A DNA stretch of 64,000 bases, from contig OZ024761.1 in NCBI GenBank assembly GCA_964016885.1, positions 21,390,001-21,454,000 of the forward strand, in the 5' to 3' direction. The stretch comes from Eledone cirrhosa. Taxonomy: Eukaryota. The translations under genes and the position numbers were made by a program. Numbering within the stretch: position 1 is the first letter of the stretch; every line of letters begins with the position of its first letter. Below are positions 2,276 to 52,000 of the stretch, in pieces. Under the pieces are notes generated by a model. That model made no database searches and was not told the origin of the DNA. It worked only from the letters and a program-made list of their open reading frames with translations.

Positions 2276-2900
2276 TCACTGCCTCAGTCTTTCCCGTTCT
2301 GCCCATCTCTCACTATTATAAGCCAATGGGGGCCCACGTACCCCGGCGGACAGAATAGAGAAGGAACTTCCCCAGAAGATAATGAAGAAGACGCATTGGA
2401 AGAGCAGCCATTCCAGCTTGTGAGGCTCACACCTGCGGGTAGCGAACTGTGTACCTATTGTGGTAAGTAGGGAGTTGGTCCTAGGGCCAAGGACACCAGA
2501 AGTCTCCACTGCTACGGGTAACCAACTCTGTGCTGATGGTGGTAAGTAGGGAGTTGGTCCTAGGGCCAAGGACACCAGAAGTCTCCACTGCTACGGGTAA
2601 CCAACTCTGGCCTGATGGTGGTAAGTAGGGAGTTGGTCCTAGGGCCAAGGACACCAGAAGTCTCCACTGCTACGGGTAACCAACTCTGGCCTGATGGTGG
2701 TAAGTAGGGAGTTGGTCCTAGGGCCAAGGACACCAGAAGTCTCCACTGCTACGGGTAACCAACTCTGTGCTGATTGTGGTAAGTAGGGAGTTGGTCCTAG
2801 GGCCAAGGACACCAGAAGTCTCCACTGCTACGGGTAGATTGTGGTAAGTAGGGAAGTGGCCCTAGGGCCAAGGACACCAGAAGTCTCCACTGGTACAGGC
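2276..2900 (-). mobile_element. 3' fragment of a CRE-like (restriction-like endonuclease) non-LTR retrotransposon, with a 79-bp segment tandemly amplified
   Basis: The minus frame gives PVAVETSGVLGPRTNSLLTTIG...EWLLFQ...SIL, resembling CRE/NeSL-type ORF ends. A 79-bp unit repeats ~5-6 times (2460-2895). A related 3' sequence lies at ~30220-30280. Confidence 0.6.
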
Positions 2901-3366
2901 TCAACTGTAAACCTGTTGAAGAGTGATCGATATTTGGAGAGTTTACTCTCCTTGGCTTTCTACAGTTGAGGAAACAAACCACATTTACACAACAGTAAAT
3001 ATATTTAGTCCTAGATAAGATCATCTGATGGGGAGAAATCAATATTACATATGTTCACTAGTTGCTTTATATTTAACAAGTAGGTGAAACTAAGTCAATG
3101 GAATGCTGCTTCAAGAAACAAACAAGTTTAAATGTCCAGGAATGGACCTCCACCGTTTTCGATGGTCAGTGGTCCAGTTGTTTTATCAATGGAACAGCCT
3201 GTGTAAGTGGCTGAGCATTCCATAAACATACATGTATCATTAACACTTTAGCTACCAACCAGGCCAAAGCCAGCTCTGATTCTATGAAATAAAATCACCC
3301 ATTTTAAAGGTTTCCAATTTAAATTAAAATCTGCCAACATAATTTTATATAAGAACCTTACATTAA

Positions 3367-5871: not shown

Positions 5872-6216
5872 AGTAAATGTTGTGTTGTAAAATATTCAAT
5901 ATGTGAGAGTTTGATACATTTACTGTGATACTTGATCTCTAAGTCACCTAAGACCAGATAATATATTTTTTATTTCTATTTATTTTATCTATTTATTATA
6001 TTTATTATTTTATTTATTACTTCGATGATCAGAATTTATTTGGACACCTGTGTTTATATTTATATATATATATTTTTAATTTTTTTTTACTGTTTACCAA
6101 TCAGCAGGTTTGGTCACGCATGAAAGAAGTTACAAGTTATATATAAGTTAGCATGAGAAAAGAAATAAAAGGAAAGAAGAAAAAAAAGCAGGTAATATTA
6201 ATTAATTCCCAGCAAG

Positions 6217-6966
6217 ATGACGACGACAGCACTCCGGCTGAGAAAAACTACTAAGATGTTTACCTGCCCTGTAATCAAACGACTTCTTTCCACCACCAAA
6301 TCTGTATTGCCTTCTCTTGGAGTTTCCCAATATAGATTATTATCGCCGTTTAATTTTCGATTGTTTTCTACAAGTAGAGGTTTACCCTGTGTCTCCCCCT
6401 CTGGTTATACAGACTGTTACGATGGACACTTTGATGAAGCCCTCCACGATCCTACAACATTCTGGGCTAGGGCTGCCGAAGATTTAGTCTGGCATAAAAA
6501 ATGGCACCAGGTCCTCGACAACTCAAACCCTCCATGGACTCGGTGGTATGTATATATATATACATATATCTAAATAATAATAATTTCTACTTTAGGCACA
6601 AGGCCAACAATTGGGGGGGGGGGGGGTCGATTAAATTGTATTACTGGTACTTTATTTTATCAGCTCCGTAAGAATGAAAGCCAAAGCTAACCTGGAGGGA
6701 TTTGAACTCCGTAACTAATAATAATGGCAATTACTGTGTACTGTGCACAGGTGCACTACATGTTATTATATATACATTAATATTTATTGTTAGAGATGGC
6801 CCCAGAGCGTATTTGCTTGCCTTGAAATATTCCGTTGGCCCTTGTGATGCGCGGTCGAATGTCGCACTTAGGGGTGAATTGGTGGTAGTTTTCGTTGTTG
6901 TTATATGTTATATAATACTAAAACTTGTATCTATAATTTTGTGTATGTAGGTGATTTTATAATAAA

Positions 6967-7027
<61 letters not shown>

Positions 7028-7081
7028 TATATAGTGTTGTATTATTATTTCTGGCAATATTATAACAATATGACCCTCCCC

Positions 7082-7132
<51 letters not shown>

Positions 7133-7421
7133 CAAATTTTAAAAAAAGGAGTTAAAGACTCGCATTTATCCCCTATAATTTAACGAGCTTAAGGAATAGA
7201 TTCGGGGCTCATTATAAATCAATATATAGGGAGAAGTACATATAGAGATGTGTTCAATGATAGGGGATCAAAAACCACCAGAGTGGCGAACATATATTCT
7301 ATGTACTATACATGCACCTTTGATGAGTTGTAGTGCACCTGAGCACTGTACACAATAATTTCATTATTATTATATTATATATAAAGAATAACCAACCAAT
7401 TATAACTATATATTGTGTATT

Positions 7422-7452
<31 letters not shown>

Positions 7453-8519
7453 CAACATAACGAGACGACTTTTTATAAGTTTATTAATTTTTCAAGAATA
7501 TAATTTGTAGAAAACATTCCTGTTGTCGTCGTCCCCCGTCCCTCCGGGCCAAGCAATAAAGGTGCGAGTCCTACAGGTGCTTGTTAATACCCCCCCCCCC
7601 AACTATTTTTCCCCCCATTAAGGAGGCTTATACTCTCAGGTCTCGAATAATCCACCACCCCCCCCTATTAACCTTTCAGACTTTCCACCCCCACCCCCGC
7701 TTATTAAATATTTTACTAATCTATTCAATAGTAGTAGTAGTAGTAATAGTTGTTGTTGTTGTTGCTGTTGTTCTTGTTTAATATTGCTTTTTTTTTTTTC
7801 TCACTGAAAAACTACTTCTTGTTAGCCTTCTTTTTTTGGGGGGTATTTTTAATATTATTATTATTATTATAACATTCCTCTCCGGTACAAATGTTGTGAA
7901 GACCTCGGGTGGGAAAACCACACAAAAACCGGTCATTTACGACAGTTTTCAAGGTCATTTACTTTCAAAACAGATAAAAAGGAAATCATGAGAAAAAAAC
8001 ACAAATTTTTTATGTTCGAGATTTTTGTGTGGCATCTGTGTCGTTGACAGCAAAGTTGTTGTCATCGTCAGCGGCTAACCTTGCCGAGTGTCTCATTCGA
8101 TGTTATAGGTGAGCATGCTTGGTTGATTCAGCACCTTAGGGTTAAAGTTTATCTTGAACTCCAAGGCTCACCAGGCCGGTGATTATTCCAGTTACGTAGT
8201 GTGAAGTGGCTGAAAGTACCAGACTCACCCCTGGAGAGGCACCAGTCCACCGCAGGGTTAACCCCCAGCTATTGCTGCTGGTACTTATTTTCAGCTGAGT
8301 ATACTGGAGCAACATAAAATGAAGGTGTTTTGCTCAAGAACAGAACACACAAACCAGCTCAAGAATCAAACCCACGACATTATGATCCCATCTGAACCTG
8401 GAAGATCAAGATCAAGATGATGATGATGATGAAATATATTTTGACTCACCCCAAGCAAGAAAATAAAGCTACTAAAAGGCAATGGAGTTACTAAGAAGAG
8501 AGATGAACAAGACAGAGAA

Positions 8520-8556
<37 letters not shown>

Positions 8557-8799
8557 CAAAGGAAGTGTGGTAAGGAACCAGGTGGACCATAACACACCAG
8601 AGTACTTGATACTTTGGGTAGTAGAGTGGGTAATAGGAAAACAGTCAAAATCCCGACAGCAGAGCTCGAGCCATTTCGACAGCTATTTCTGGACTAAATT
8701 AAATTATATATATATATATCGAAGTCCAGCTTGGGTGGGGCTGATAACATTGTTAGGACTCAATGTATCCTAGGGAGGATGGCTGCGGTGAGAATTGTT

Positions 8800-8849
<50 letters not shown>

Positions 8850-11800
8850 TCATTACTCAAACATAATGAAGACATAACAAATCGTCCTTTTTATTCCCAC
8901 CGAGGTTAACTTTGCCTTTCATCCTTACGGGGACAAATAAAATAAAATACCAGTCATGCACTGGGGTCAATTTAATCTATTTTCTCCTCCTCCTAAAATT
9001 GCTAGCCTTGTACCTAAATCAGAAATCATTAAATACTTCTTGATTATATTTCTATAATATCAATGAACTCCCATGACATGGGGAGGTTTTGAGTATTGAA
9101 TAAATTGTATTTAGTTACAACAAAAAACTTCAGTGTCAACAGTCTAGCTCACCAGAATGACATCTCGAATGTTATAGACTGATTTTTACTGTCTGTCTGT
9201 CTGTCTGTTTTCACTTCAATAAGTTCACACATCTCTCTCTCTCTCTCTCCTACCTGTTCTCTCTCCCCCCTGTCTACTACCTGTTTGTTTCACTCTTTCT
9301 TCGCAATAATATCTCTTATTTATTTTTTATATTTTCTAAAAATATTTTCTCACAGAACTTTAAGTTCCCCACCTTCACCTATCATTCACCTTTCCTTTTA
9401 TTTTTATCCTCTAACGTTTTCTAGTTTTCTTCTCACCCACACTAAGGCCCCTTAACACACGTCTTAGTCTTCCTTCTCACCCACACTAAGGCCCCTTAAC
9501 ACACGTCTTAGTCTCCCTTGTCACCCACACTAAGGCCCCTTAACACACGTCTTAGTCTTCCTTCTCACCCACACTAAGGCCCCTTAACACACGTCTTAGT
9601 CTCCCTTCTCACCCACACTAAGGCACCTTAACACACGTCTTAGTCTCCCTTCTCACCCACACTAAGGCACCTTAACACAAGTCTTAGTCTCCCTTATCAC
9701 CCACACTAAGGCCCCTTAACACACGTCTTTGTCTCCCTTCTCACCCACACTAAGCACCTTAACACACGTCTTAGTCTTCCTTCTCACCCACACTAAGCAC
9801 CTTAACACACGTCTTAGTCTCCCTTCTCACCCACACTAAGCACCTTAACACACGTCTTAGTCTCCCTTGTCACCCACACTAAGGCACCTTAACACACGTC
9901 TTAGTCTCCCTTCTCACCCACACTAAGGCACCTTAACACACGTCTTAGTCTCCCTTCTCACCCACACTAAGGCACCTTAACACACGTCTTAGTCTCCCTT
10001 CTCACCCACACTAAGGCCCCTTAACACACGTCTTTGTCTCCCTTCTCACCTACACTAAGCACCTTAACACACGTCTTAGTCTTCCTTCTCACCCACACTA
10101 AGCACCTTAACACACGTCTTAGTCTCCCTTCTCACCCACACTAAGCACCTTAACACACGTCTTAGTCTCCCTTGTCACCCACACTAAGGCACCTTAACAC
10201 ACGTCTTAGTCTCCCTTCTCACCCACACTAAGGCACCTTAACACACGTCTTAGTCTCCCTTCTCACCCACACTAAGGCACCTTAACACACGTCTTAGTCT
10301 CCCTTCTCACCCACACTAAGGCACCTTAACACACGTCTTAGTCTCCCTTCTCACCCACACTAAGGCACCTTAACACACGTCTTAGTCTCCCTTCTCACCC
10401 ACACTAAGCACCTTAACACACGTCTTAGTCTCCCTTGTCACCCACACTAAGGCACCTTAACACACGTCTTAGTCTCCCTTCTCACCCACACTAAGCACCT
10501 TAACACACGTCTTAGTCTCCCTTCTCACCCACACTAAGCACCTTAACACACGTCTTAGTCTCCCTTGTCACCCACACTAAGCACCTTAACACACGTCTTA
10601 GTCTCCCTTCTCACCCACACTAAGGCCCCTTAACACACGTCTTTGTCTCCCTTCTCACCCACACTAAGGCACCTTAACACACGTCTTAGTCTCCCTTCTC
10701 ACCCACACTAAGCACCTTAACACACGTCTTAGTCTCCCTTCTCACCCACACTAAGGCCCCTTAACACACGTCTTAGTCTCCCTTCTCACCCACACTAAGC
10801 ACCTTAACACACGTCTTAGTCTCCCTTCTCACCCACACTAAGCACCTTAACACACGTCTTAGTCTCCCTTCTCACCCACACTAAGGCCCCTTAACACATG
10901 TCTTAGTCTCCCTTCTCACCCACACTAAGCACCTTAACACACGTCTTAGTCTCCCTTCTCACCCACACTAAGGCACCTTAACACACGTCTTAGTCTCCCT
11001 TCTCACCCACACTAAGCACCTTAACACACGTCTTAGTCTCCCTTCTCACCCACACTAAGGCCCCTTAACACACGTCTTAGTCTCCCTTCTCACCCACACT
11101 AAGCACCTTAACACACGTCTTAGTCTCCCTTCTCACCCACACTAAGCACCTTAACACACGTCTTAGTCTCCCTTCTCACCCACACTAAGGCCCCTTAACA
11201 CACGTCTTAGTCTCCCTTCTCACCCACACTAAGGCACCTTAACACACGTCTTAGTCTCCCTTCTCACCCACACTAAGCACCTTAACACACGTCTTAGTCT
11301 CCCTTCTCACCCACACTAAGGCCCCTTAACACACGTCTTAGTCTCCCTTCTCACCCACACTAAGCACCTTAACACACGTCTTAGTCTCCCTTCTCACCCA
11401 CACTAAGGCACCTTAACACACGTCTTAGTCTCCCTTCTCACCCACACTAAGCACCTTAACACACGTCTTAGTCTCCCTTCTCACCCACACTAAGGCACCT
11501 TAACACACGTCTTAGTCTCCCTTCTCACCCACACTAAGGCACCTTAACACACGTCTTAGTCTCCCTTCTCACCCACACTAAGGCACCTTAACACACGTCT
11601 TAGTCTCCCTTCTCACCCACACTAAGGCACCTTAACACACGTCTTAGTTTCCCTTCTCACCCACACTAAGGCCCCTTAACACCCGTCTTATTAGTGGCTT
11701 TCTTCTCACCCACATTGTTAAATGACTCCTAAATCAGAAACCATTATCATTATTATTGTCATTTATATCAGGACAACTACATTTCAAAATTCCAATTTTC

Positions 11801-13043
11801 CCAATGCTTCTTTAAGCCAACCAGTTATTTACATTTGTTTTATTGTTTAGGTTTACCGGTGGAGAACTCAATACAACATACAATGCCCTTGATCGACATG
11901 TTGAAAATGGACTTGGAGAAAGGGTTGCCCTTATACACGACAGCCCTGTTACCAATCAACTGGTGTATATAACCTACTCTCAGCTTTTACATACGGTAAA
12001 CTTTACACAACTTATCTTCCCTATCTCTATTTTTTCTTTCTACGTTTTGTGTGTATAATTGTCAAAGGGTATGCATGTGTTTTTGTGTGTGCTTTTCCAG
12101 GGTGGTGATACATGTCTGTACGTCTGTCCAGGGTGATACATGTCTGTATGTCTCCAGGGTGATACATGTCTGTATGTCTCCAGGGTGATACATGTCTGTA
12201 CGTCTGTCCAGGGTGATACATGTCTGTATGTCTCCAGGGTGATACATGTCTGTATGTCTCCAGGGTGATACATGTCTATATGTCTGTCCAGGGTGATACA
12301 TGTCTATATGTCTGTCCAGGGTGATACATGTCTGTATGTCTCCAGGGTGATACATGTCTGTATGTCTCCAGGGTGATACATGTCTGTACGTCTCCAGGGT
12401 GATACATGTCTGTACGTCTGTCCAGGGTGATACATGTCTGTATGTCTCCAGGGTGATACATGTCTGTACGTCTCCAGGGTGATACATGTCTGTATGTCTG
12501 TCCAAGCTGACATACATGGGCAACTGCAGGTCCTCTACAAAATACCTTGCCTATGGTTGGCATCGAGAAGAGGAATATTTTTTTTCCAGGTGCAACCTAA
12601 TATCAATTATTGTCTTTCAAACAAACTCTTTCTTGACATCCAAATATATCAATTTATTTAATATATCAATATTTGATCAGTTATAAACCCTAACCCTAAC
12701 TCTAACAATACTGATTATATTTAGTGATTTAGTTTCTAGAATTCTTATTTTATTTTTAATATTTGGCAAAGCCAGCAGCAACTCTCTCAGTGAGCGAGTG
12801 AGGCTACTCAGCTGATGTGTACTTAAGAAAATACTATATATTTTCAACTGTTCAACAGACTGGCAGAGGTATACAGTCCTGGTGAATGGTAATGACCTGG
12901 AAACATGTTGATTATTCCTCAAAGCCAGTGTTGAACAAACCGGTGACGACCGGTCACCGGCACAGCTTCTAATTGGGCTTGTTTGTTTACAAACGAATCG
13001 AACATTATTATTAATGTTCGATATAACCCCTACATACATCTAT

Positions 13044-13074
<31 letters not shown>

Positions 13075-15488
13075 TGTGTATATGTATGTATGTGTGTGTG
13101 TGTGTGTGTACGTATGCATATTTTTCTAGAATTATTCAGATTTAATTTATGAATCTTTCTTTTCCAACATTTTATTGTAATGTCTTTTGTTTAGTCTTAA
13201 CTCTAACATTTCCTGATTCCCATGTGATCAGCTGAAATCACTTTATATAACAGTCGCAGGTAGATTTTCCAGTTAGCTGAAATGGGGCAGGTGTAAAAGT
13301 TACTACTGTTGTTGTTATTATACTTGAAGGGCGGTGGATTGGCAGTATTGGTAGAGGTTCAAACACCATGCTTTCCAGCATAGTTATGCCTCTTTACGGC
13401 CTGAGTTCAAATCCCACCGAGGTTACCTTTGTTTTTCATGCTTACGGGGTCGATAAATAAAGCACCAGTAATAAACTGGGGTCAATTTAATCAACTTTTA
13501 TAGAACCAAAACTGGCTTTGGCCAAGTTGGTAACTAAAGGGTCAAAATGGGAGGTTTTATTTCATGGAACCAGAGCTGGTTTTGGCCGGGTTGATAACTA
13601 AAGGGTCAAATGTTTATAGTCCCTTTATTACATCTTTAGAACTTATACTTATATATTTTCTTTAATGTGTATTTGTACAAAAACAATTTTTCAGGTAAAG
13701 CATTTTGCTGGAGTTCTCAGGAAACATGGCGTTGAGAAAGGAGATCGTGTTATGATTTATATGCCAGCTATTCCTCAAACTATTGTCACCATGTTAGCAT
13801 CAGCCAGAATCGGTGCCATTCATGCAGTGGTCTTTGGGGGATTTGGTGCCAAGGAACTATCAAACAGAATTGAACACGCAAAAGTAAGACATATTTCTTT
13901 TTCTTAACCCTTTACCATTTAAACCAGCCGTATCTGGCCAGAATTCGGTCACCTCTTTCTCTTCAAACTGGCCATAACCAGCTGCTCATACTGATGTTAA
14001 AGTATTGTTTTCAAAATAAATAATATCAAAATCTCATAGATTTAATATTATGTGAGATAAAGCGTTTACTGTGAAATTACAATAGTAAATATAGAATATA
14101 AAGGGTTAATTATAGTTTTTGGTGAAATACTGATTTTATGAGGTGGTGAATTGGAAGTTATTAGAGTGCTTTGGTATTTGTCCCAGGGTAGATAAAATAA
14201 AGTACCAGTAATGCACTGGGGTCGATTTAATTGACTTTCCCTTCTCCCCAAAAATTGTTGGCCTTCTAAATCAGAAACCATTATTATTATGGTCAATTGT
14301 GTTGTGACACGCATTTAAAATTTTCCCAATTCTTCTTAACTCTTATGAACTTGTATTTGTTTTTTTCTTTAAAGCCGAAGGTGATAGTCAGTGCCAACTG
14401 TGGTATTGAGGTCAATAAGATTATTGAATATAAACCAATATTAGATGAAGCATTGGCACTAATCAACCACAAACCAAATAAATGTATCATTTACAACCGA
14501 CCCCAGGTAAGTTTTTGTATATACTGAAAACTTCATTGGTTTTATACCGTTTTATACAGTCTATATAGTGTTAATATAGTTGTAATATTAATACAGTCTA
14601 TATAGTATTAATACGAAGCATTGTTTTGTTTCATAGTATCAGACAGTTTTCGACATCATCATCACTATTTAACCTGTTGACTGCCATGTATATTTTACAC
14701 AGCTACAGTTGCTGTGTTGACTGCCGTATATATTTTTACACGGCTACAGTTGCTGTACCGGGTTTTTTTCCCAGTAAAATGACTATTTCTTTAAACAAAC
14801 ATTTATTAATAACAAATATCTGAATAATTGACAAATGTCACATCAATAAACTAGTAACCCCATCTAGCTTTGAAGTTATGAACTGTTGGAAACAAGTTCA
14901 AACATGTTAGGACGAGTTATGTCATCCATGGCACTGAAGAGGTTAATATTTACCTATCTTACCAGGAGTAGATAGATTGTCTTATGAGACTAGCCAGGTG
15001 AAGTAAGATCGGGTCAGACCGGGTGACCATGTCTTGCTCATCCGGATCTGTTTTCAGGGCTTGCTTTCTACAGCTTGATGTCCTTCTTAATCCCAACCAC
15101 GATAGTGTAGACTGTGTACTTTGCATTGTGGCACCAGAATGACCATCTAACAGGGTGGGCTGGGTTTTAAAAAATGTCCTAAGAAACTCCGTATGTCAGT
15201 ATGACACTCTTATGACTCCCTCAAGAGTTACGGGACCATACCATATATAGGTTTAAATTGTAATTGGCAAATCTATTCTATATCTGTATTTATTCTATAA
15301 TAATAATTGTTTCTACTTTTGGCACAAGGCCAGCAATTATCCCAGTGCATTACTGGTACTTTATTTTATCGACCCCGTAAGGATGAAAGGCAAAGTTAAC
15401 CTCGGCGGGATTTGAACTCAGACCATAAAGGGCCGTAACTCTATGCTGCAAAGCATGGCGTCCGACCCTCTACCGATACTGCCACTCC

Positions 15489-15524
<36 letters not shown>

Positions 15525-18500
15525 TGAAATTTCAACATTTTTGTTTCCACATATGAATTGCTGGTTTAAAGGCGAACAAAGCTAAATTTACAAAAGGTCT
15601 TGACACATGTTACATGGAAGAACTTGCTACTGCCTCCCCTACTGATTGTGTACCGATACCAGCAATGGACCCTTTGTACATTCTACATACATCCGGAACC
15701 ACTGGATTACCTAAGGTAAATGATGCTATTTTACTTTAAAATATTCCATACCTTCTTTTTCTTCTTCTTCTTCTTCTTTGCTCACTTATTCCTGAGAAGG
15801 TGGTTGTGTGAGGGCAGAGTCCTTCTCAAACACTCCTTGCAGTGGGTCCTGTCAGAAGCAACCATCTCCAACTGATCTGGCTGGATCCCCAAATGAGACC
15901 AGCCAAGCTCATGGATGTTATCCAACCATCTTGCTTGATGTGGGTCTACCACTGGGTCTCCTGCCGATTGGTTTTGCCCATAAAATATTTCATACCTGCA
16001 AAGATAAATTAAGATAGAGTAACTATGTGGAGATGTGTGGCCAAGTGGTAAGTGTTGAACATATAATCATAATGTTGTGGGTTCGAATCCTGGGCTGAAT
16101 TGTGTGTTATGTTGTTGAGAAAAACACTTCATTTTATGTTGCTCCAAACAGAATACACACATAAACGCATACACAGAAGCAACAAAAATTCATTATAGAA
16201 ACACGAGAGAAAACACAGAGATAATCACTGAATATGTCACAGAAATGGGTGACTAAAGAACTTTGAGAAATTATATCTTTAACTGTTGGTCAATTAATGA
16301 TAAACATTGATTACCAGCTAAATTATTTATAGAAATATACTGAAGTGAAAACTAAACCAAACAGTGAATGTGTTTTACTAGTTTTTCAATATTAATACAT
16401 GACCTCCTGAAATAAATACATTTTTTAACATTTGAATACATTTTCAGGCCGTAGTGCGTCCAAATGCTGGCCATGCTGTAGCATTGAAATGGGCAATACA
16501 GAATGTCTATGGTATCAAACCAGGAGAGGTAAATATAATCAATTTCTCAGACAAAACAAAAATATCAACCTACTGCTGCCATATTGAATATATTTGCATA
16601 TAATATACAGGAGTTATCAAAATAAATCACCAGACATACTCACTTGAGTATGGGACTAGTTTGACTATTGTGTGGATATATGCCGTGTGTCCAGAGGAGG
16701 ACATATTGAACATTTGTAAAAGATTCTAAATAAAACTTTATATTCAGACATGTATTGTTCAAGTTACTGCATGATTATATGGTCATTGGTTTCAGAAATA
16801 TACCCTTTTGTAATTGGATGATTCTTTTTGATACACCCTGTATTAACCATTTCATTACTGTATTTCTTTTGAGGAAAACTATTTATGATGTTCACATATT
16901 GCCTTCAGTCTGTTAAAAACTATGGAAAGTTGTGTAAATATGTTGACATGCATGAAACAGTTGCTGTAGAATTTGAGAGTGAATGTGTGATTACAGAGAT
17001 ATTGGGTGAGGTAAAAACCCTATCTTTTTATAGCATTAAGATAAATAAAGATCAAAGAATCCAGACATACATTTATAGAAATTTGGCAATACTCTCTCTC
17101 TCTCTGTCTGTCTATCTCTTTCCTACTCTCTCTCTCTCTCTGTCTATCTCTCTCTCTCTCTCTCTCACAATATTTGTTGTTAACAAAATTATGAGAATTT
17201 CACATGTTAAATATATTTTGTCTATTTCAAATATTCTTTCCATATATTTTGTTCCTTTTAAAGGTTTGGTGGGCAGCCTCGGATCTTGGGTGGGTTGTTG
17301 GTCACTCTTTCATAGCCTACGGCCCCTTACTTAATGCAAACACATCCATTTTATATGAGGTATGTACTTTTACGAAATTATTTTATCTTCATAATTTGTC
17401 GCATACAAAGTCTTGGTTTTCAGTTTGCAGTTTTATTTCATTTCATTTCATTGGCATTGCTCCCTCTTACATCGCTGGCCTCCTGCCATGCCCGTAAGGT
17501 CCTCTAAAGTCCTTATCAGACAAGGTTCTCTCGAGGCCGTAAGGTTCTCTCAATCCCTTATCAGACAAGGTTCTCTCAATCACTTAGCAAACAAAGTTCT
17601 CTCAAGCCCTTATTAGACAAGGTTCTATCGAGCCCTTATCAGACAAGGTTCCTCCCAACACATCATAGCCCACTGCAGTCAGGGAACATGGGGTTGCCTA
17701 CACAACATGGAGCTAAATTGGCCATATCTTAATAAAATGACTTACATAAAATTAATTTGGTATTCACGCCAACCCTTACCTGTGGTCATGAATCTTAGGT
17801 AATGACCGAAAGAATACGATCACAAAAGCGGCCGAAATGGGGTTCGTCCGAAGGATCTTTGAGGTAACGTGACTCGATAGAGTGTGTAGCTCGGAGATGA
17901 GAGAGTCACTCCAGGTAGAGCTGCTATTTCTTAGAGTGCATAGCTTGGAGATCATGGAGTCACTCCAGGTAGAGCTGCTATTTCTCAGAATTGGGAGATC
18001 ACAGTTCTAATACTACAGACACGTGGTTAGAATGTCTTAGGAAAGAATCGCTTGTTATATTTGTAGCTCAGAGATGAGAGAGTCACTCCAGGTAGAGCCA
18101 CTACTTCTCTGAATTGAGAGATCACAGCTCCGATACTATGAGCATGTGGTTAGAATGTCTCAGGAAAGAATCGCTGGACAGATTTTACGGGCAAAACCAA
18201 TCAGCAAGAGACCTTGGAGTAGACCTCGAGCAAGATGACTGGATAACATCCATGAGCTTGGCTGGTCTTGTTTGGAGGACATATCCAGATCAGTTGGAGA
18301 TGGTTGCTTCTGACAGGACCCACTGGAAGGAGTGTTTGAGGACTCTGTCCCCACGACCTTCTCAGGAATAAGTGGGCAAAGAAGTAGTCTATATTTATGT
18401 TGCACAAAAATTGAATTTCAATTTAAAAAAAAAAAACGAAATTGTTTGTTTTAGGGAAAACCAGTTGGTACTCCTGATGCAGGTTCCTATTTTAGGGTCC

Positions 18501-21500
18501 TGAAAGAACATAACGTGTCTGGGATGTTTGTTGCACCAACAGCCTTGCGTGCAATTATAAAAGAGGTAACGTAAATATATTTACTCACATTAGACTGACA
18601 AATACCTGTGTGTAAGGAGTTGGGCAGAAATCTGTGAATTATATGACTTTGTCGTATATTTATCTTTTAACTCTTTCATTGGTTTCGGTTATGACTGTGG
18701 CATCACCTGGGAAGGATTAAATCAATCATATTGATCCCAGTACTTAGACTTAGCTTCTTTAAGTCTGGTATTGATTTTATCTATCTCATTTTCTTGAACC
18801 ACTAAGTTAAAGACTGAGTGTGAGGTCCTCCTTTAATTGTATGCCTACTAATTTGCTCTTGTTTTCTACCTGTAGGACAATGAAGGGCAACATGCCAAGA
18901 ATTATCTTCCATTTTTCAAGTAAGTTGTGGTTTATGTTGTTGTAGTTGTTACAGCTCACCACACCTGTGTGAGTTTTAACTGGCCTCTTACAAGGTTGTA
19001 TCTCTGAGGAGGTTTTGTGAGTATTTTAATGGTAGGGACCCCAGTTCTACCATGGTGTTGTTGTTACAGCTCAAACATCAGATATATAATAAGAAAGTTA
19101 GTTATGTTGCCAAGTTCCTCCAGACTTTTCATGATTTAAAAAATGATTTGAAAACCATAGGAAGCAGTGTCTCTCATTAGAAATATCGTAACAAAAGGGT
19201 AAAAGTATTTATCTAAAATCTCTCCAAATTCTTGCTTATTTTCAAAATTATTTGAAAACCATGGGAGACAGTGTTGTCTTAGAAATATTATGAAAGGGTT
19301 TATCAACATCAAATTGAATTCTAAAGATATTGTTTTACGCATGCCATCACATTTATATAACTTTTCCTAGTTTGTTTTTAACAGCCTGAAGGCAATATTT
19401 GTGGCTGGAGAACATTGTGACAAAACAACAATGCAGTGGACAAAAGAAACAGTACAGACACCAGTCTTGGATAACTGGTGGCAAACAGGTATGTACTGTT
19501 GTGGAGGGCTTGGGCTATTGGGGGTAGAGTTTTTTAACTACATACACTGAATACCCACCTGAAAGTTGGATCTCACACACTCTAATCTGCCCACCTGGGA
19601 ATATGACCCTCACGCACCCTAATCTCACTGCTTTGAGGTTGGTTACAACTCCTGGGGGACATCATATCATTACAGCTGTCTCATACAGAACTATCTGTGT
19701 GTCTATGTATGTCTTTGTCTCTCAGTGTATGTCTGTGTGTGTCTTTGTCTCTCAGTGTATGTCTGTGTGTCTATGTATGTCTTTGTCTCTCAGTGTGTGT
19801 ATGTGTGTCTGTGTGTGACTGTGTAATATTCAGATAATTATGATAGTACCAAATTTTTCAGTTAAATTAAAATATTTTTCTTTTCTTTTCAGAAACATCT
19901 TGGCCAGCTTTAGCATCTTGTTATGGTCTTGGAATGAATATGGATCCTGCAACTGGAGTATCTGGAAAACCTGTTCCAGGCTGGAATGGTGAATATCTAA
20001 ATTACATCTTATTAATCATTGACTAATTGATAGTGCTGGATTAAAAGAAATGTTAGAGTGTTGGACATATGCTATGGTTGTACAGCTGCTCATAAACATC
20101 TGGTTTATACAGTGTGAAATATCACTTTACATCTATTTATACAGATGTCTAAGTCTAAAGTCTGTCTTAAACCAGAAGGCTCATTTGACCGGTGCTTATC
20201 CCGGTTTCATGGCGTGAAGTGACTGAGAGTACAAGACTCCCCCCTGGACAGGACACCAGTCCATCACAGGGTTAAACCCCCCGGCTATTACTGGTACTCA
20301 TTTTCAGCTGAGTATACTGGAGCAATGTGAAATGAACTGCTCAAGAACACAACACGCAAGCCAGGAATCGAACCCATGACATTATGATCGTAAGTCCAAC
20401 ACCCTTACCACTAGGCCACGTGCCTCCTAGACACTCATAACATCTGGTGGTTTGTACAGTGTGAAACATCACTTTACATCTGTTTATACAGATGTAGACA
20501 GTCATAACACCTGGTGGTTTGTACAGTGTGAAACATCACTTTACATCTGTTTATACAGATGTAGACAGTCATAACAGATGGTGGTTTGTACAGTGTGAAA
20601 CATCACTTTACATCTGTTTATACAGATGTAGACAGTCATAACAGCTGGTGGTTTGTACAGTGTGAAACATCACTTTACATCTGTTTATACAAATGTAGAC
20701 AGTCATAACAGCTGGTGGTTTGTACAGTGTGAAACATCACTTTACATCTGTTTATACAGATGTAAACAGTCATAACAGCTGGTGGTTTGTACAGTGTGAA
20801 ACATCACTTTACATCTGTTTATACAGATGTAGACAGTCATAACAGCTGGTGGTTTGTACAGTGTGAAACATCACTTTACATCTGTTTATACAGATGTAGA
20901 CCGTAATAACAGCTGGTGGTTTGTACAGTGTGAAGTATCATTCTACATTGGGATCAATATTTTGATGATTTTCACCAGCTTCAAATTCTACGTAAATAAT
21001 GTTTGGAGTTTTGCCCATTTCTCAGACATAAAACATGGTGGGTGGCATCTGCTTATATTCAAGTATATACGGTAACTGTTCAGTTTTTGGACTTTTTCAG
21101 TGAAACTAATGTCACCAAAGTCAACAGAAGAAGCTAAAAGTGGGGAACTTGGCCAGATTGTTATCAAGTAAGTGTCAACCTTGTGATTTAGCTAATAGAA
21201 TACACAATGTCCACGCCACACTACACCCATACCACACCATATAAATAAAGGTGATAGATGCTGTGTAGGACACTTAACTATGGTTGGGACGAACACAGAA
21301 CTAGTGGATAACCTGTCAAATTACAGAATTCATAGATATCTTGTCAAAATAACAGAACGAGTGGATATCTTGTCAAACTAACAGAGAAAGGTGGATATCT
21401 TATAAAACTAGGAGATAACTGTTGGATATCTTGTAAAACTAGGATAACTGGTGGATATCTTGTAAAACTAGGAGATATTTTGTCACAGACACATAGTTAA

Positions 21501-21831
21501 TGACCAAGATATCATGGATGTCTGGCAGTGGGATTGAACCAGGGACCTAAGGATTACAATCCAAACTTTTTAACCATTTAGCCACATATACACACACATA
21601 TATACATTTATAAATACACAACTAAGAAATAAATAACTTGTTTTAATTTCATTCCTTAGGCTTCCGCTTCCTCCTGGGGCTTTTTCTTCACTGTGGAACA
21701 ATGATGAAGGATATAACAGTCTATATTTCACAAATTATCCGGTAAGTTCCTGTCTCTATATTCTTCATATCTATTATTTTCAGGTCCCAATATTAGTGAG
21801 GGAATAGGTAATTTTTCAAGGTTGTCTCCCT

Positions 21832-21866
<35 letters not shown>

Positions 21867-23140
21867 CAGAATTAGTCGTTTAGTTTACATATTGGGATCC
21901 CCATCTCATCATATTTATCTTATAAAAATATGGGATTTTTAGTAATGTACTTTTTTGTCATGTATAATGTTTTTAATGTCTAAAGAAACTTAATTGTTGC
22001 AGGAATGCTGCTACTTAAAATAAAATTTTCCTATGGATAGATTAGCAAAATTTAATTATTTCCGTAATCACCTCATCTGTGAATTATTTCCGTAATCACC
22101 TCATCTGTGAATTATTTCCGTAATCATCTCACCTGTGAGTTCCTTTCGTCGTCGTCTCACCTGTGAGTTTCTTTTTGTCCTCATCACACCTGTGAGTTTC
22201 TTTTTGTCCTCATCACACCTGTGAGTTTCTTTTCGTCATCGTCACACCTGTGAGTTCCTTCCGTTGTCACCAAGGAGATGGCTTTCTTCATCATCTCCTC
22301 TGTGAGTTTCATCAATTTGAGGTCATCTCTCACCACCACCACCTCATCCTCCCAGGTCTTCCTTAGTCTTCCTCTACTGCAGCTTTCTTCCACTGAAATT
22401 TCAATAAAAACTAACTACCAGACATTTCTCATTACAGGGTTACTATGACACAATGGACTCTGGCCTACGAGATGAGGATGGTTATATTTCTGTCCTGACA
22501 AGAACTGACGATGTAATAAATGTAGCGGGTCATCGACTCTCAACCGGAGCTTTAGAAGAGGTAACCGTGGCAGCAGATTTATATTTCATCATCTCAGGAT
22601 GTATATATATATATATATATATATTATAATAACAGATTAAAGTTTAAGCAAAGAATGGCTGCTTTCACCCTTAATAATCCTTATCAAGCCCTCTTTAGAT
22701 TTTAGTCTTGACATTTATTATTACTATATATATATAAATTAGGCTGCTCAGCCGTTAATATGCATAAGGAAAGTATATACTTTCAGACGTTCAACCATCT
22801 GACAGAAAGGTATACGATGCTGACGATAGCTAATAAGCTTGAAACTAGTACATCGTTCCTGTGTCAGTGTTGAACAAAAAGGTGATGATGGTTGCCTGAA
22901 CACTGTACGGCGTAATTCGGGCTATTTGTTTGTTTACAAACAAACCGAGCATTATAATAAATGTTCGGTAAACCCATACGTACATATATATATATGTGTG
23001 CATGTCTGTGTATATATATATATATATATATATACATACTACTGTACGTCTGTATACATATATGTATGTACGTATACTTATTACATATAAGTACCAGCCG
23101 TACTAAGAGTGAGAAATGAAATTTCATTTCATTCTTTTCC

Positions 23141-23176
<36 letters not shown>

Positions 23177-26100
23177 GTAGAACACTGAAGTGTTATATCC
23201 ATAGTAGTAGAACACTCAGTCCATGGGGCAAGTTTAGTAGAAGTAGTTCCACAACAGTTAGTTGACCATTTCCGAGGACAATTGTTTCACATAATGGATT
23301 ATATATATATATGTATGTATATGTATGTATGTATGTATGTATATGTGTATCATCATCATCGTTTAACGTCTATCTTCCACGCTAGCATGGGTTAGACAGG
23401 AATTGTCCTACTTGAGACAAGATTGATCGGGTGACCATGTCTCACTCGTATGGGACTATATCTGGCAGGTTTTCTACTGCTGGATGCCCTTCCTAACACC
23501 AACCATATATATGTATAACAACCTAGTGCTGTAGTAGCAGGGACAGTTTCAGTTGGTTTGGTTTCAAAAGTGTTAAATATTTAATTTTATCTAATTTTCA
23601 GGCAATTATGCAGAATGATGCAGTAGCTGATGCTGTGGTTATTGGTGTACCTAACGAAGTGAAAGGTCAAGTACCTTTAGGGTTATGTGTGCTGAAAACA
23701 GGTGAGGAATTATTCCTCTATGTCTAGTTATTTGGGAGCTTATGGTAGGTGGCATGGGTGAGGTATTGCAGGTGGACTTGATTTATCATGTCAGCTTCAA
23801 TCCTTTTCTATTTGTTGAAATGTTGTCTCTCTCTCTCTCACAGCCGTTTCTATAAATATTTCCAGAGAAATTCTTCTGTTGAGCTTTCCTCTCTGTTACC
23901 TTGTTTTAACGAGTTTTAAACAAGCACTAGATTGGTACCTAGGTCTCGTCCCTTTACAGTTCAAGTTTCTAAATGTTGTTGTAAATTCTATTCTGATATA
24001 TCTAAGGTTTGTCTATCGAATAATATATGATATATTTACAAATAAACATTTGAAATCTTTTAGCCATGAATTTTAAAGATGATGGTCGACACCACCTTTA
24101 AGATTCATAGCTAAAGGACTTTAAATGTAGTAAACATATCGTATATTATTCAATAGACAGACCTTACATACATGAATGTATACAGCTATGTTGGAGTAAA
24201 CACTAATTCTATTTCTATTCTGATAGTTTCTTCCCTCATCAAATTATTTTCTAGCTTCTTGCTTTCCTCACCTCCAACTGCAATTTACATAAACTCCAAC
24301 ACAACATCAATCACCATCTCTCTCTCACTCTCCTTGAATTACGTTCTCTTTGTCTTGCCCTTCTCCCTTCTCAGTAAGCCCCTGCATTTTAGAGGCTTTA
24401 TTGCCTTGCTTGAGGTGAAGAAATATATATATAGAGAGAGAAAGAGTCAGCACCCCGACGGCTGAGCTCCAGCCATTTCAACAGCGAGTTCTGAACTGGC
24501 TGTCAAAACGGCCGGAGCTCAGCCGTCGGGATCCTGATTCTTTTCCTATTACCCCCACTCTACTACCCATAGTATCGAGTACTCTGGTGCATTATGGTCC
24601 ATCTGGTTCCTTACCACACTTCCTTTGTTTTATATATATATATATATATAATTGTTTTCTCTGTCTTGTTCATCTCTCTTCTTAGTAAACCCCCATTGCA
24701 TTTTAGTGGCTTTATTTTCTTGCTTGGGGTGAGTCAAAATATATTTCATCATCATCATCATCTTGATATTCCAGGTTCAGATGGCAATGAAAATAAGATT
24801 ATAGAAGATGTTATACAAATTGTCAGAGATAACATTGGACCAGTTGCTTTTTTTAAACAAGCAGTTATTGTACCAGCTTTGCCTAAAACAAGATCAGGAA
24901 AAACAGCACGCAACACTATCGCAGCTTTGGCAGCTGGAAGGGAGTTCAAGGTAAGAGTTTAAGATTTCAGATGAAAAATACCAAAATCTCTGTTTACTGC
25001 TCTTCTTCTTCTTCGCCTACTTATTCCTGAGAGGTTCATGGGAGAAAGGGAAAAGTCCTCAAACACTCCTTCCAGTAGGTCCTGTCAGAAGCAACCATCT
25101 CCAACTGATCCGGCTGGATCCTCCAAGCAAGACCAGCCAAGCCCATGGATGTTATCCAACCATCTTGCTTGAGGTGGGTCTACCCCAGAGTCTACTGCTG
25201 CTTGGTTTTGCCCAAAATCTCTCTGATTACAAGAGATTATATTGGGTTTTGGTGAAGGCACGTGGCTTTGTGGTTACGGTGTTCAGCTTGCAATAAAAAG
25301 GTTTAGTTTGATTCCCGGCTGTGTTGTCTCTTTGAGCAAGACACTTTATTTCACATTGCTCCAGTCCACCTATCTGACAAAATATGAGTTGTACATGTAT
25401 CTAATTCAAAGAACAGGTATTGGATTTTCAGCAGTGTGATTGTGAGTTCAATTCCTGGGTCAGGTATCAAAATCTCATAGATTCGATATAATGTGAGGTA
25501 AAGCCTTTATCGTGAAAATACAATAGTATGTATAGAGTAATGTAAATGTTGTGAGATATTATGTGAGGTAAAGCCTTTATCGTGAAAATACAATAGTATG
25601 TATAGAGTAATGTAAATGTTGTGAGATATTATGTGAGGTAAAGCCTTTATCGTGAAAATACAATAGTATGTATAGAGTAATGTAAATGTTGTGAGATATT
25701 ATGTGAGGTAAAGCCTTTACTGTGAAAATACAATAGTATGTATAGAGTAATGTAAATGTTATGCGAGATATTATGTGAGGTAAAGCCTTTACTGTGAAAA
25801 TACAATAGTATATATAGAGTAATGTAAATGTTGTGAGATATTATGTGAGGTAAAGCCTTTACTGTGAAAATACAATAGTATATATAGAGTAATGTAAATG
25901 TTGTGAGATATTATGTGAGGTAAAGCCTTTACTGTGAAAATACAATAGTATGTATAGAGTAATGTAAATGTTATGCGAGATATTATGTGAGGTAAAGCCT
26001 TTACTGTGAAAATACAATAGTATGTATAGAGTAATGTAAATGTTGTGAGATATTATGTGAGGTAAAGCCTTTACTGTGAAAATACAATAGTATATATAGA

Positions 26101-49005: not shown

Positions 49006-52000
49006 GACACACACACACATATATATATATATATATGACACACACACACACATATATATATATATCACAAAAGAACCAAATTCAAGCAAAACACTTACTA
49101 GAAGATACTGGACAATTTCCGAGAACTATTTTTTTGGCTTCTTCAAATTTCTCTTTAAATAACTGTGCATCTATAAACAGAAAATACACCAATGTCAACA
49201 ACATCACCACCACCACCACCACTACCACTCATCATCAATGTATATGATAAAGGGTTAAAGTTTTCATCCATCTTCCTGTTTTAGACTTTCTCTCTATTCT
49301 CTTATCCCTTGTATATATATCTTAAGTCTCTCTCAAGGTTCTTATATCAAATTAAATTGAAAACCTTTAAAATGGGTGGTTTTATTCCATAGAAACAGAG
49401 CTTGATTTACTAAAATTAAATATTTAATTGATAGTAACCCTTTAGCATTTAAACCGGCCATAATTCTCTCACTTCTTTCTGTCCAAACCGGCCATAGCTG
49501 GCCACTCATACTGACATTAAGGTATTGTTCTCAAAATAAACAATATCATCAAAATCTCATAGATTCCATATTCATCATCATCGTTTAACATCTATCTTCC
49601 ACGCTAGTATGGGTTAGACGCGAATTGTCCCACTTGAGGCAAGATTGATCGGGTGACCGTGTCACGCTCATGTAGGACTATTATGTGAGATACAGCCTTT
49701 ACCATGAAAATATAATAGTAATGTAAATGCTAAAGGGCTAACCAATAATAATAAATAACACGTACTTTCACTATTAGCAAATTTAATTGCCAACAGTTCA
49801 GGTTTGGTTTTTTCATCAGCAAAATCAGCCAGTGTACTCCAGACCCAAGCGCGATCACTACTAATGCTTGGTTTTAGCTCCATACTTTTAGTTACTGTAG
49901 AGAAAAATATAAAAACGTTTATTAGACTAATAAATAAACCTCATTGGGTGAAAATACCCAAGATAAATTTTGATAAAACAAGAAATGAAACATACAATTA
50001 CTATCATATATAAACAATGTCACTTTGACGAATCAAAGAAAGGATAAAAAAACAAAAACAGACCCTTAAATATATTTTCCGTGCTATTTCCAACTTCACC
50101 CTCCCTCTCTATATATCTATATTTATATATATATATATATATATACATACATATATGAGTGCGTTGTGATTGCCTTAAATCAAATAGTACCTGCTGTACA
50201 ACTAAAACTACGATTTACAACTATTACACACATGTGTGTGTGTTTATGTATATATATATGCACATGTATCTCAATACAATACTATAAAGCATGGTATTGT
50301 ACCAATATACATACATGTATATTAGATAAACATACACACACATCATCATCACCATTGCAGTTTTAAGTGAACATTAAAACAACTTCAATTTATACCCATT
50401 ATATATATATATATATATGTAATCTGAGTTTTTTTTATATTAATAACATTCAATTCGTTTGCAATTATGCAAACAAGCCTCATTTTTAAAGTTATGTCAG
50501 TAGAATGAACCCTTCATTCTTGCCCTTGTGTTGGCATGGAAACAGAACTGCAGACACTCATGTTTCTGGGTATCACCCTTCACCAGTACAGCTCACTGTT
50601 CACCTGCCAAACTGTCAGAGCTAGTGAAAATATATGCTATTTTCTAAAATATACAGTGACTGATTTAAATATATATATATATGATGAATTACTAGTCAAA
50701 ATGAAATATGGTCAAATGGAGCTACACAGCCTAATGTAAAGATGAGAAAAAGTAGATGACTGGCAACTGACAAGTGTAGAAAGAGTGAAGTTAGAGAAAC
50801 CCTTATAAGGTATGTACAGGTTAATAACTTACTGTAATGGTTGGCACAGATCTTGAATGTCTTGTCTCGACGCATCACCAATCTGATTTGATCACAGTCC
50901 TTATTTCGGAGCAACTTTACATCACCGGTGCCTCGTTCTTTCCATTCAGGGGAATCAGAGTTAACATAACGAAACAGTTTCGCTCGACTGAACAATTAGA
51001 AATAAAACAAAATGGCTATTTAGTTGGGTTTTTTTTAAATCAAATATTTTGAAGAATCTCGTCAACAAAACTATTCCTTTCAACCAGGATTTCCAAAACT
51101 TTTCCAACACAGAACCCTTTTTGGTTCAGAAACTTTTGGGGGAACCCCAAAGTCTAATACTGTTATATAATAATACATATAGCCCTCTACCTTTTGTTCC
51201 CAGAATCCCAGACACTCCTTTGCAGAACCCATTTTGGGAACCACGGCTTTAGACATCCTAAATATGTGGTACATACATACACTGTTATGTTATATATAGT
51301 CCTACATACACTGATATATATATAGTACTACATAGTTACTGTTATATATATGGTACTACATACACTGTTGTATATATAGTACTACATACAGTTATATATA
51401 TGGCACTACATACACTGTTGTATATATAGTACTACATACAGTTACTGTTATATATATAGTACTACATACACTGTTGTATATATAGTACTACATACACTGT
51501 TATATATATAGTACTACATACACTGTTGTATATATAGTACTACATACACTGTTATATATATAGTACTACATACACTGTTATATATATAGTACTACATACA
51601 CTGTTGTATATATAGTACTACATACACTGTTGTATATATAGTACTACATACAGTTACTGTTATATATATAGTACTACATACACTGTTGTATATATAGTAC
51701 TACATACACTGTTATATATATAGTACTACATACACTGTTGTATATATAGTACTACATACAGTTATATATATGGCACTACATACACTGTTATATATATAGT
51801 ACTACATACACTGTTGTATATATAGTACTACATACACTGTTCTATATATAGTACTACATACAGTTACTGTTATATATATAGTACTACATACACTGTTGTA
51901 TATATGGTACTACATACAGTGTTATATATATAGTACTACATACACTTGTATATATAGTACTACATACACTTGTATATATAGTACTACATACAGTTAGTTA

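Follow-up and report, generated by a model that had tools for sequence, protein, structure and literature searches.

The locus and its repeat copies

The window, meaning the whole stretch of 64,000 nt analysed here from contig OZ024761.1 of Eledone cirrhosa (host genome 3.0 Gb), contains the exons of an acyl-CoA synthetase gene and three copies of a short hammerhead-bearing repeat, referred to below as copies A, B and C after their families. Propionate-CoA ligase was the best NCBIfam match in two of the five exon pieces and among the top three in all five, which fits ACSS3 on our assumption that a PrpE-like enzyme and ACSS3 may be equated. Copy B lies within an intron at approximately 11996-13695 and copy A within a 1-kb intron at 22562-23602, both in sense orientation and flanked by plus-strand synthetase exons, as the sequence-only reading of this DNA had placed them, while copy C is a more distant relative of both and lies antisense at 50.4-50.7 kb. 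The features are as follows.

6202..24959, plus strand: exons of the host acyl-CoA synthetase (ACSS3-like), spanning ACAS_N (6202-6570) to AMP-binding_C (24573-24959)
12741..13119, plus strand: family B retrozyme copy, decayed, boundaries approximate; octamer lost; core CTGGTGA at 12879; the cleavage site would follow 12909
22725..22736, no strand: (TA)n left flank of copy A, the target microsatellite
22736..23144, plus strand: family A retrozyme copy, about 0.93 of the ~438-nt unit, 5'-truncated within the octamer and ending at the long (tail) 3' end
22736..22743, plus strand: octamer-block remnant in copy A, AAATTAGG of TATGCAAATTAGG, a block that intact units carry in full and that matches host U6/MRP promoters
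22748..22784, plus strand: U1/U2/U5-type proximal-element-like stretch in copy A, with TCAG at 22748 and TATATA at 22774
22789..22875, plus strand: long interrupted stem I around the hammerhead of copy A (GTTCAAC/GTTGAAC, CTGACA/TGTCAG, AGG/CCT, TAT bulge, ACGATG/CATCGT)
22804, plus strand: predicted transcription start of copy A (C/AG junction), 47 nt before the cleavage site, as suggested by the host TCAG -56/-57 and TATA -30 spacings
22820..22850, plus strand: type I hammerhead core of copy A (CUGACGA, helix II, GAAA, helix III, GUA), predicted cut after 22850
22945..22968, plus strand: covarying 3' hairpin of copy A
22979..23085, plus strand: TA/TACA-rich self-complementary internal segment of copy A, to the end of which the family's short 3' end maps
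23086..23144, plus strand: Penelope-type optional tail of ~58 nt with a T4 run, ending at the family A long 3' end
23144..23173, no strand: (TA)n right flank of copy A
50418..50666, minus strand: retrozyme copy of family C with core CTGGTGA at 50586 (CTGATGA in the family), 5'-truncated before TCAG

The first two copies had been described as diverged versions of one element of about 240 bp, and their relationship was borne out by pairwise alignment (22741-22978 against 12801-13032, 69.7% identical over 244 columns, E 2e-18), with the folding of each beating all 200 shuffles (z -3.6 for the 22741 copy and -6.3 for the 12.8-kb copy). The proposed length was not borne out, the unit being 438-481 nt and the copy at 22.7 kb spanning 22736-23144. 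Nor do the copies end in a TA/TACA microsatellite as had been suggested, the stretch after 22978 being an internal self-complementary hairpin, with the true end lying about 165 nt further on. The 12.8-kb copy is homologous, but rather than being a variant of the same element it belongs, in decayed form, to a separate family, B, with a core of CTGGTGA against the family's CTGATGA. The full unit, its tandem and inverted layouts, the tail and the promoter-like block had been overlooked.

A motif scan of both strands of the window returned four candidate cores, at 12879, 22820, 50586 (minus strand) and 29687, the last being a CTGAAGA...GAAA hammerhead-like motif with no homology to the retrozyme element and probably a chance occurrence. 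The family C window copy has a 3-bp helix III, a GUC site, the short 3' end and TA flanks. All three window copies lack the full octamer, and the core is intact in A only and broken in B and C. The window copies are inactive end products with one hammerhead each, A and C being truncated in or after the octamer and B having lost it. Another abundant dispersed repeat, probably a tRNA-derived SINE, is present in at least 14 copies at 8908-62454, and weak tRNA matches occur in the window at 20353, 38101 and 63419.

Repeat unit, families and abundance

The sequence upstream of the unit start is the unit's own end, with no ORF, and the element is therefore a closed repeat of 438-481 nt, occurring in layouts that range from partial tandems through family A loci with three to five units to a 30-unit family E array. 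Initial genome searches returned 2288, 2276 and 2056 candidates with copies A, B and C as the respective queries. A pattern running from the octamer to the core gave 18,137 exact genome matches compared with 0 for the reversed control, and the first 100 of these listed comprised, by eye, 98 from family A and two from the distant family D. A variant pattern, with 6,822 genome matches against 0 for its control, revealed family E. There are at least five families, with pairwise identities of 43-72%, and mean identity to the majority sequence over 30 loci each was 0.96 for A, 0.905 for B and 0.95 for C. The core motif was present in 27/30 A1, 24/30 B and 24/30 C loci, as well as in 10/10 A2 and 6/6 E loci, these last two sets having been selected on the hammerhead core. 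GC content was 0.35-0.36 in three monomers, and no reverse transcriptase (RT) or endonuclease match was found inside the units.

The longest tandem layout, among the arrays that the sequence-only reading had proposed looking for, is a run of 30 near-identical 466-bp family E units with a GUU cleavage triplet at G000:C1:5738331-5751968 (L233-L255), which is a candidate source locus or a candidate single rolling-circle insertion. In four sequencing runs of unrecorded kind the family also occurs, with head-to-tail and inverted joints. The two family D loci (L207 and L221) are old and distantly related hammerhead repeats that share the octamer-to-core layout and have a longer helix III. In family C (L162, L170-L172, L177 and L180, upstream of position 1500) the octamer-plus-TCAG block is found in up to three tandem copies.

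The element is a non-autonomous hammerhead repeat of ~440-470 nt and one of the non-LTR retrozymes, a class already known. No description of retrozymes in cephalopods was found in the literature covered, to which repeat databases and two supplements that may hold the family did not belong. The giant squid paper, in the part covered, counts 235 Rfam hammerhead-1 matches and goes no further (PMC6962438). What appears to be added here is a Penelope-like element (PLE) insertion signature seen directly, together with a block matching host promoters.

Hammerhead structure and covariation

Copy A carries the intact type I core CUGACGA/GAAA/GUA, which starts at 22820 and has its predicted cut after 22850; core, TAT bulge and loop II are all as originally described. 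Across nine family variants, 93% of cells were paired and 11 of 16 pairs were changed on both sides, a covariation score reached by none of 500 shuffles; related sequences can beat shuffles without any structure, but slid-structure controls were only 32-44% paired and this, like the invariant core, agrees with pairing. The catalytic core is invariant across families that are approximately 50% identical. These results support the view that retrozyme source lineages keep their RNA structure, in line with the earlier suggestion of a ribozyme retroelement family under structural constraint. The particular helices quoted for that suggestion fared unevenly: the ACTAGT/ACATGT palindromes and the downstream hairpins do preserve pairing with changed sequence, but those given for the 12.8-kb copy are decayed forms of ACAGTC/GATTGT and GGGT/ACCC. 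Rfam returned no hammerhead in the window (E up to 1) or in 22740-22980 (E up to 10), nor at gathering score in seven other loci, so that the Rfam search proposed as a check did not recover the motif.

In all nine variants a U-R-W 3-nt bulge in stem I faces a single U, and loop II is UAAYRA-like, an arrangement that we take to resemble the Schistosoma tertiary contact. Helix III consists of one pair and a palindromic tetraloop in families A, B and E, and of three pairs in C; in copy A, the single pair closes a palindromic CUAG loop with a computed intermolecular duplex energy of -6.8 kcal/mol, and helix II has a U.U mismatch at its base and a UAAUAA loop. Axolotl hammerheads share the single-pair helix III with palindromic tetraloop and the U.U mismatch at the base of helix II, both found in family A, and cleave efficiently only in dimers (PMC7229834). 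Families A, B and E are therefore predicted, with strong though not complete confidence, to cleave as paired hammerheads in dimers, and C as single ones. The hammerhead had been classed as the minimal type of Penelope-like elements, a type with neither helix III nor the loop-loop tertiary motif (PMC6155905, PMC7761336). This description does not apply, as the unit hammerhead has a helix III of one to three pairs, and the bulge and loop II are kept in all families and in 9/9 variants, as in newt and axolotl.

The co-transcribed intronic copies had also been suggested to affect processing of the host pre-mRNA, and they could in principle be domesticated regulators like the amniote intronic hammerheads, given that copy A is in sense orientation with an intact core in a 1-kb intron. 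An effect on the host transcript is unlikely, because the copies are dispersed in many thousands, the core of copy B is broken, the single-pair helix III of copy A depends on a partner hammerhead, of which the intron provides none in cis, and two of two copies in sense is at chance level. Further, copy A and its dispersed siblings are 96-98% identical, which makes it recent, whereas domestication of the amniote RECK type would be expected to leave a low-copy element at a conserved orthologous position and not thousands of such siblings. Domestication is thus extremely improbable.

Insertion signature and the probable Penelope-like partner

Copies have varied 5' truncation points and two fixed 3' ends approximately 58 nt apart, usually running into (TA)n. 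With 3' ends classified by strict anchors (a fuzzy classification was discarded as too noisy), TA repeats follow 38/40 long and 23/30 short ends at 50 family A loci, and 16/17 long and 19/24 short ends at 29 family C loci. Two-armed loci with TA at both ends paired one long with one short end in all 23 cases (15/15 in A and 8/8 in C), a count made after four A and three C pairs with a non-TA end (one of them short with short) and one duplicate A row had been set aside. Copies of three to five units have the same TA flanks, fixed 3' end and inverted arms as single insertions. With respect to target-site duplications, which in metazoan non-LTR retrozymes exceed 4 bp where present, most ends lie in (TA)n, and one direct repeat, of 11 bp (TTTCTAGAATT, at 12733-12743 and 13123-13133), flanks copy B and is possibly such a duplication. 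PLE insertions have an optional tail at one end (PMC8557442), which biochemical work has traced to two sites of internal RT initiation on AT-rich targets (PMC11167929).

The genome contains a young PLE encoding RT, a Cys motif in the linker and, at the C terminus, a GIY-YIG domain, with more than 30 intact 775-aa frames among 117 scored matches, and typed as Neptune/Nematis by its linker motif. The 14 loci listed, out of 20, all end in (TA)n, nine with a tail and five without. In this element (L082:1982-5643; also L081, L083 and L084) there are two overlapping frames, an upstream ORF of ~450 aa without a clear Pfam match and the 775-aa RT-EN ORF; canonical EN+ PLEs have been described as single-ORF. 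The overlap holds a T-TTT-TTA heptamer, presumably of slippery-site type, which is a candidate -1 frameshift site. A fragment of a different PLE RT, with motifs that we assume to be Naiad-like, occurs near a family B copy at L032 (reverse strand, near 2500-3200).

An RT ORF linked to the retrozyme had been proposed as a further check. Matches to PLE proteins were present in 6 of 148 retrozyme loci, and three of them (L052, L229 and L284) join the unit directly to an inverted Neptune-type piece, but at none of the 148 loci does an ORF-pLTR junction continue co-linearly into the unit; the chimeras are few (3/148) and could be nested insertions at common TA sites. No pLTR or tail sequence was found to be shared between the young Neptune and the retrozyme units, one autonomous Neptune family having been compared. 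It would be conceivable for the copies to be pLTR fragments of an autonomous PLE outside those found, in that their insertion anatomy is wholly PLE-like, the family examined is one from a candidate set of 36,179, and frog retrozymes are often homologous to pLTRs (bioRxiv 10.64898/2026.07.22.740005). However, the units run head-to-tail into themselves up to 30 times, the co-linear junction is lacking even where PLE protein is matched, and the pLTR of the local Neptune carries a minimal hammerhead of its own and contains no octamer, making a fragment origin very unlikely. The reading of the element as a non-autonomous retrozyme has a well-supported partner class in the PLEs, within which a Neptune-type element is the probable mover.

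The template for such insertion could have been a linear multimer RNA instead of a circle, with the long arrays arising mainly by tandem amplification at the DNA level. Internal RT initiation works on linear RNA, insertion of the anole PLE needed no hammerhead cleavage (PMC11167929), and the 2026 preprint favours local array amplification (bioRxiv 10.64898/2026.07.22.740005). This appears unlikely given the insertion-like flanks, ends and arms of the three-to-five-unit copies, the invariance of the catalytic core across such divergent families, and the folding of circular monomers with z of -7.6 to -11.3, scores inflated by the TA-rich hairpin.

The promoter-like block

All four host promoters of the U6 (three distinct) and RNase MRP genes carry TATGC(A/T)AAT(G/T)AG at -76 to -78 and TATA at -30. 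The nine distinct U1/U2 promoters all have TCA(G/A)T at positions from -56 to -58; eight of them show a TATA-like word near -30 to -33, and in none was an octamer found within 390 nt. Twelve weaker U6 matches along with L096, L098 and L099 were excluded as likely pseudogenes with nothing promoter-like upstream. As a general layout, the octamer of the host Pol III genes (U6 and MRP: L085-L088, L115) stands at about -77, immediately ahead of the proximal region. In the Pol II genes (U2, U1 and U5: L100-L103, L116-L126, L286-L310), AATTAAAT occurs near -90, TCAGT is found near -56 and a TATA-like word lies near -31. Farther upstream, U6 and U2 both have a word resembling CCTCCCTT. In Drosophila, the choice between Pol II and Pol III is tied to promoter spacing.

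The retrozyme units contain elements of both layouts, namely TATGCAAAT(T/G/C)AGG, with YCAN placed exactly 16 nt beyond the start of the octamer in 8/8 representatives, and then a TATA-like word at +40 to +43. The family B majority sequence shares a 14-nt identity with the host MRP promoter. Among A, B and C, the octamer block is the best-conserved 13-nt window (12/13 against a background of 0.50), while its predicted pairing partner arm retains 4/16; D and E were found through the octamer and were thus excluded as evidence for its conservation, whereas A, B and C were not found in this way. A U1/U2 profile, validated by its placement of -55/-56 in 8/8 U5 loci, put the octamer+16 site at the top of 806 in A2, B and C and in fifth place in A1, but 24th, 125th and 196th in D1, D2 and E. 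At the sequence level, the octamer plus proximal element constitutes a match for A, B and C and a weak one for D and E. Profile scores were -5.9 and -1.1 for A and 2.4 for B, compared with 3.8-16.2 for U5 genes, and only C scored like real genes. The octamer-to-TATA distance of 40-43 nt in the elements compares with 46-48 in U6/MRP, giving a hybrid layout unlike that of any host gene examined. Both host spacings place the start at 22804 in copy A, 47 nt before the cut site.

It is possible, although doubtful, that the same retrozyme lacks a working Pol II promoter of its own, and is transcribed by read-through from outside or by Pol III acting on its U6-like octamer and TATA. According to a 2020 review, which assumes outside promoters for all retrozymes, these seem to contain no promoters (PMC7761336), the octamer block occurs at host Pol III genes and not at U1/U2/U5, and the long 3' end coincides with T4-T5 runs. 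In addition, the octamer forms one arm of a predicted hairpin and the TATA-like motif (CATATA or CACATA in C, E and D2) sits in the loop of a covarying one, 22769-22784 in copy A doubling as this hairpin, and part of the conservation may thus reflect RNA folding. Against this, only the octamer arm of its hairpin is conserved, the octamer-TCAG block is triplicated in family C, and a Pol III transcript stopping at the T runs could neither copy the promoter nor reach the second hammerhead. Pol II is more likely than Pol III because of the U1/U2/U5 profile match and because T4-T5 runs precede the next hammerhead in each unit. A snRNA promoter used by Pol II has been cited for newt satellite 2 (PMC2220036). 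Among 77 family A copies broken within ~10 nt of the predicted start, the junctions were spread, with no sharp peak by eye; beyond the break, these 77 matches, picked as broken just upstream of the predicted start (one side, partially sampled), had mostly inverted element sequence and no recurring foreign flank.

A proposed cycle

The observed layouts, fixed ends, copy number, covarying hammerhead and host-promoter match could be joined in a single cycle of snRNA-type self-promotion, multimer self-cutting, likely circularisation and (TA)n insertion by a PLE (probably Neptune) RT-endonuclease, an explanation that we consider, as a whole, to have a good probability of being correct. In the first step, which is somewhat likely, the octamer and proximal element in a tandem locus would start RNA ~47 nt before the first cut site. 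The read-through RNA would then very probably be cut, to judge from the newt and axolotl data, by paired hammerheads in A, B and E and by single ones in C, although the 2026 preprint found only 1 of 9 frog retrozyme dimers to cleave in vitro (bioRxiv 10.64898/2026.07.22.740005). The resulting monomer includes the promoter sequence of the next unit, and the promoter would thus be inherited. Closure of the monomer by a host ligase is likely; ligation of retrozyme monomers by RtcB was shown for mussel and axolotl. In the final step, for which the signature is seen and the likelihood is greatest, a PLE protein would nick (TA)n and start RT internally at two sites ~58 nt apart, and RT running round the unit would leave partial tandems and an inverted second arm. 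Insertion by the anole PLE in vitro was independent of its hammerhead (PMC11167929).

Relationship to known retrozymes and Penelope-like elements

Newt satellite 2, reportedly described by Coats, Zhang and Epstein in 1994, is said to combine a weak helix III and dimer cleavage with an internal snRNA-type promoter used by Pol II. The units here are similar in being hammerhead repeats with a weak helix III, predicted dimer cleavage and, at the sequence level, an internal snRNA-type promoter, and they differ in that the octamer stands directly before the proximal element as in host U6/MRP, and in that dispersed insertions into (TA)n, bearing PLE marks, make up most of the copies. In Schistosoma Sm-alpha the hammerhead is type I with a 3-nt stem I bulge and a ~6-nt loop II, as in the retrozyme units. 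Sm-alpha also has an internal promoter (Ferbeyre 1998, cited in PMC2220036 and PMC6155905), but this is a Pol III promoter (PMC2220036, PMC6155905), whereas Rfam finds no tRNA match at the retrozyme copies.

The metazoan non-LTR retrozymes (Cervera and de la Pena 2020, PMC7229834) likewise have type I hammerheads, short low-GC tandem units, no ORF and a highly paired monomer. The length of 438-481 nt is at or above the 150-450 nt reported there, the main text as covered does not mention octopus, cephalopods or microsatellites, and mobilisation by PLEs is only proposed in that work (PMC7229834), whereas the tail, inversion and (TA)n are seen directly here. In common with PLEs of the Neptune and Poseidon clades (PMC8557442, PMC11167929), the repeat exhibits 5' truncation, partial tandems, an inverted 5' arm, an optional tail and AT-rich or (TA)n targets. 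It differs from PLEs in having no ORF, in a hammerhead that retains two features absent from the minimal PLE type, the stem I bulge and loop II, in having a tail of ~58 nt as against 30-40, and in its lack of homology to the pLTR of the one Neptune family compared. The vertebrate retrozymes regarded as PLE derivatives (bioRxiv 10.64898/2026.07.22.740005) similarly co-occur with Neptune and form monomers, dimers and multimers; that preprint deals with 31 vertebrates, 3 insects and 1 coral and argues from co-occurrence and pLTR homology, and the part covered contains no insertion signatures or internal promoters.

Significance

The intronic copies themselves look ordinary, and the promoter has its precedent in newt satellite 2. 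The source of abundant transcription and the mobiliser have both been open for animal retrozymes, and the sequences here offer an answer to each, the units being likely self-promoted and likely moved by a Neptune-type element. The young intact Neptune and the young identical arrays provide material for an in vitro test, and as a by-product, the endogenous U6/MRP and U1/U2/U5 promoter layouts of Eledone cirrhosa are potentially useful for expression vectors. The chances appear evenly balanced that animal retrozymes are self-sufficient transcription units, and that in this lineage a compact snRNA promoter, combining the host U6/MRP octamer with a U1/U2/U5 proximal element at Pol II spacing, would lie inside the circular monomer, survive reverse transcription and be copied by a Neptune RT from two internal starts. 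If this is true, then together with newt satellite 2 it would make capture of an snRNA promoter a general or recurrent trait of retrozymes, against the published view that they have no promoters.
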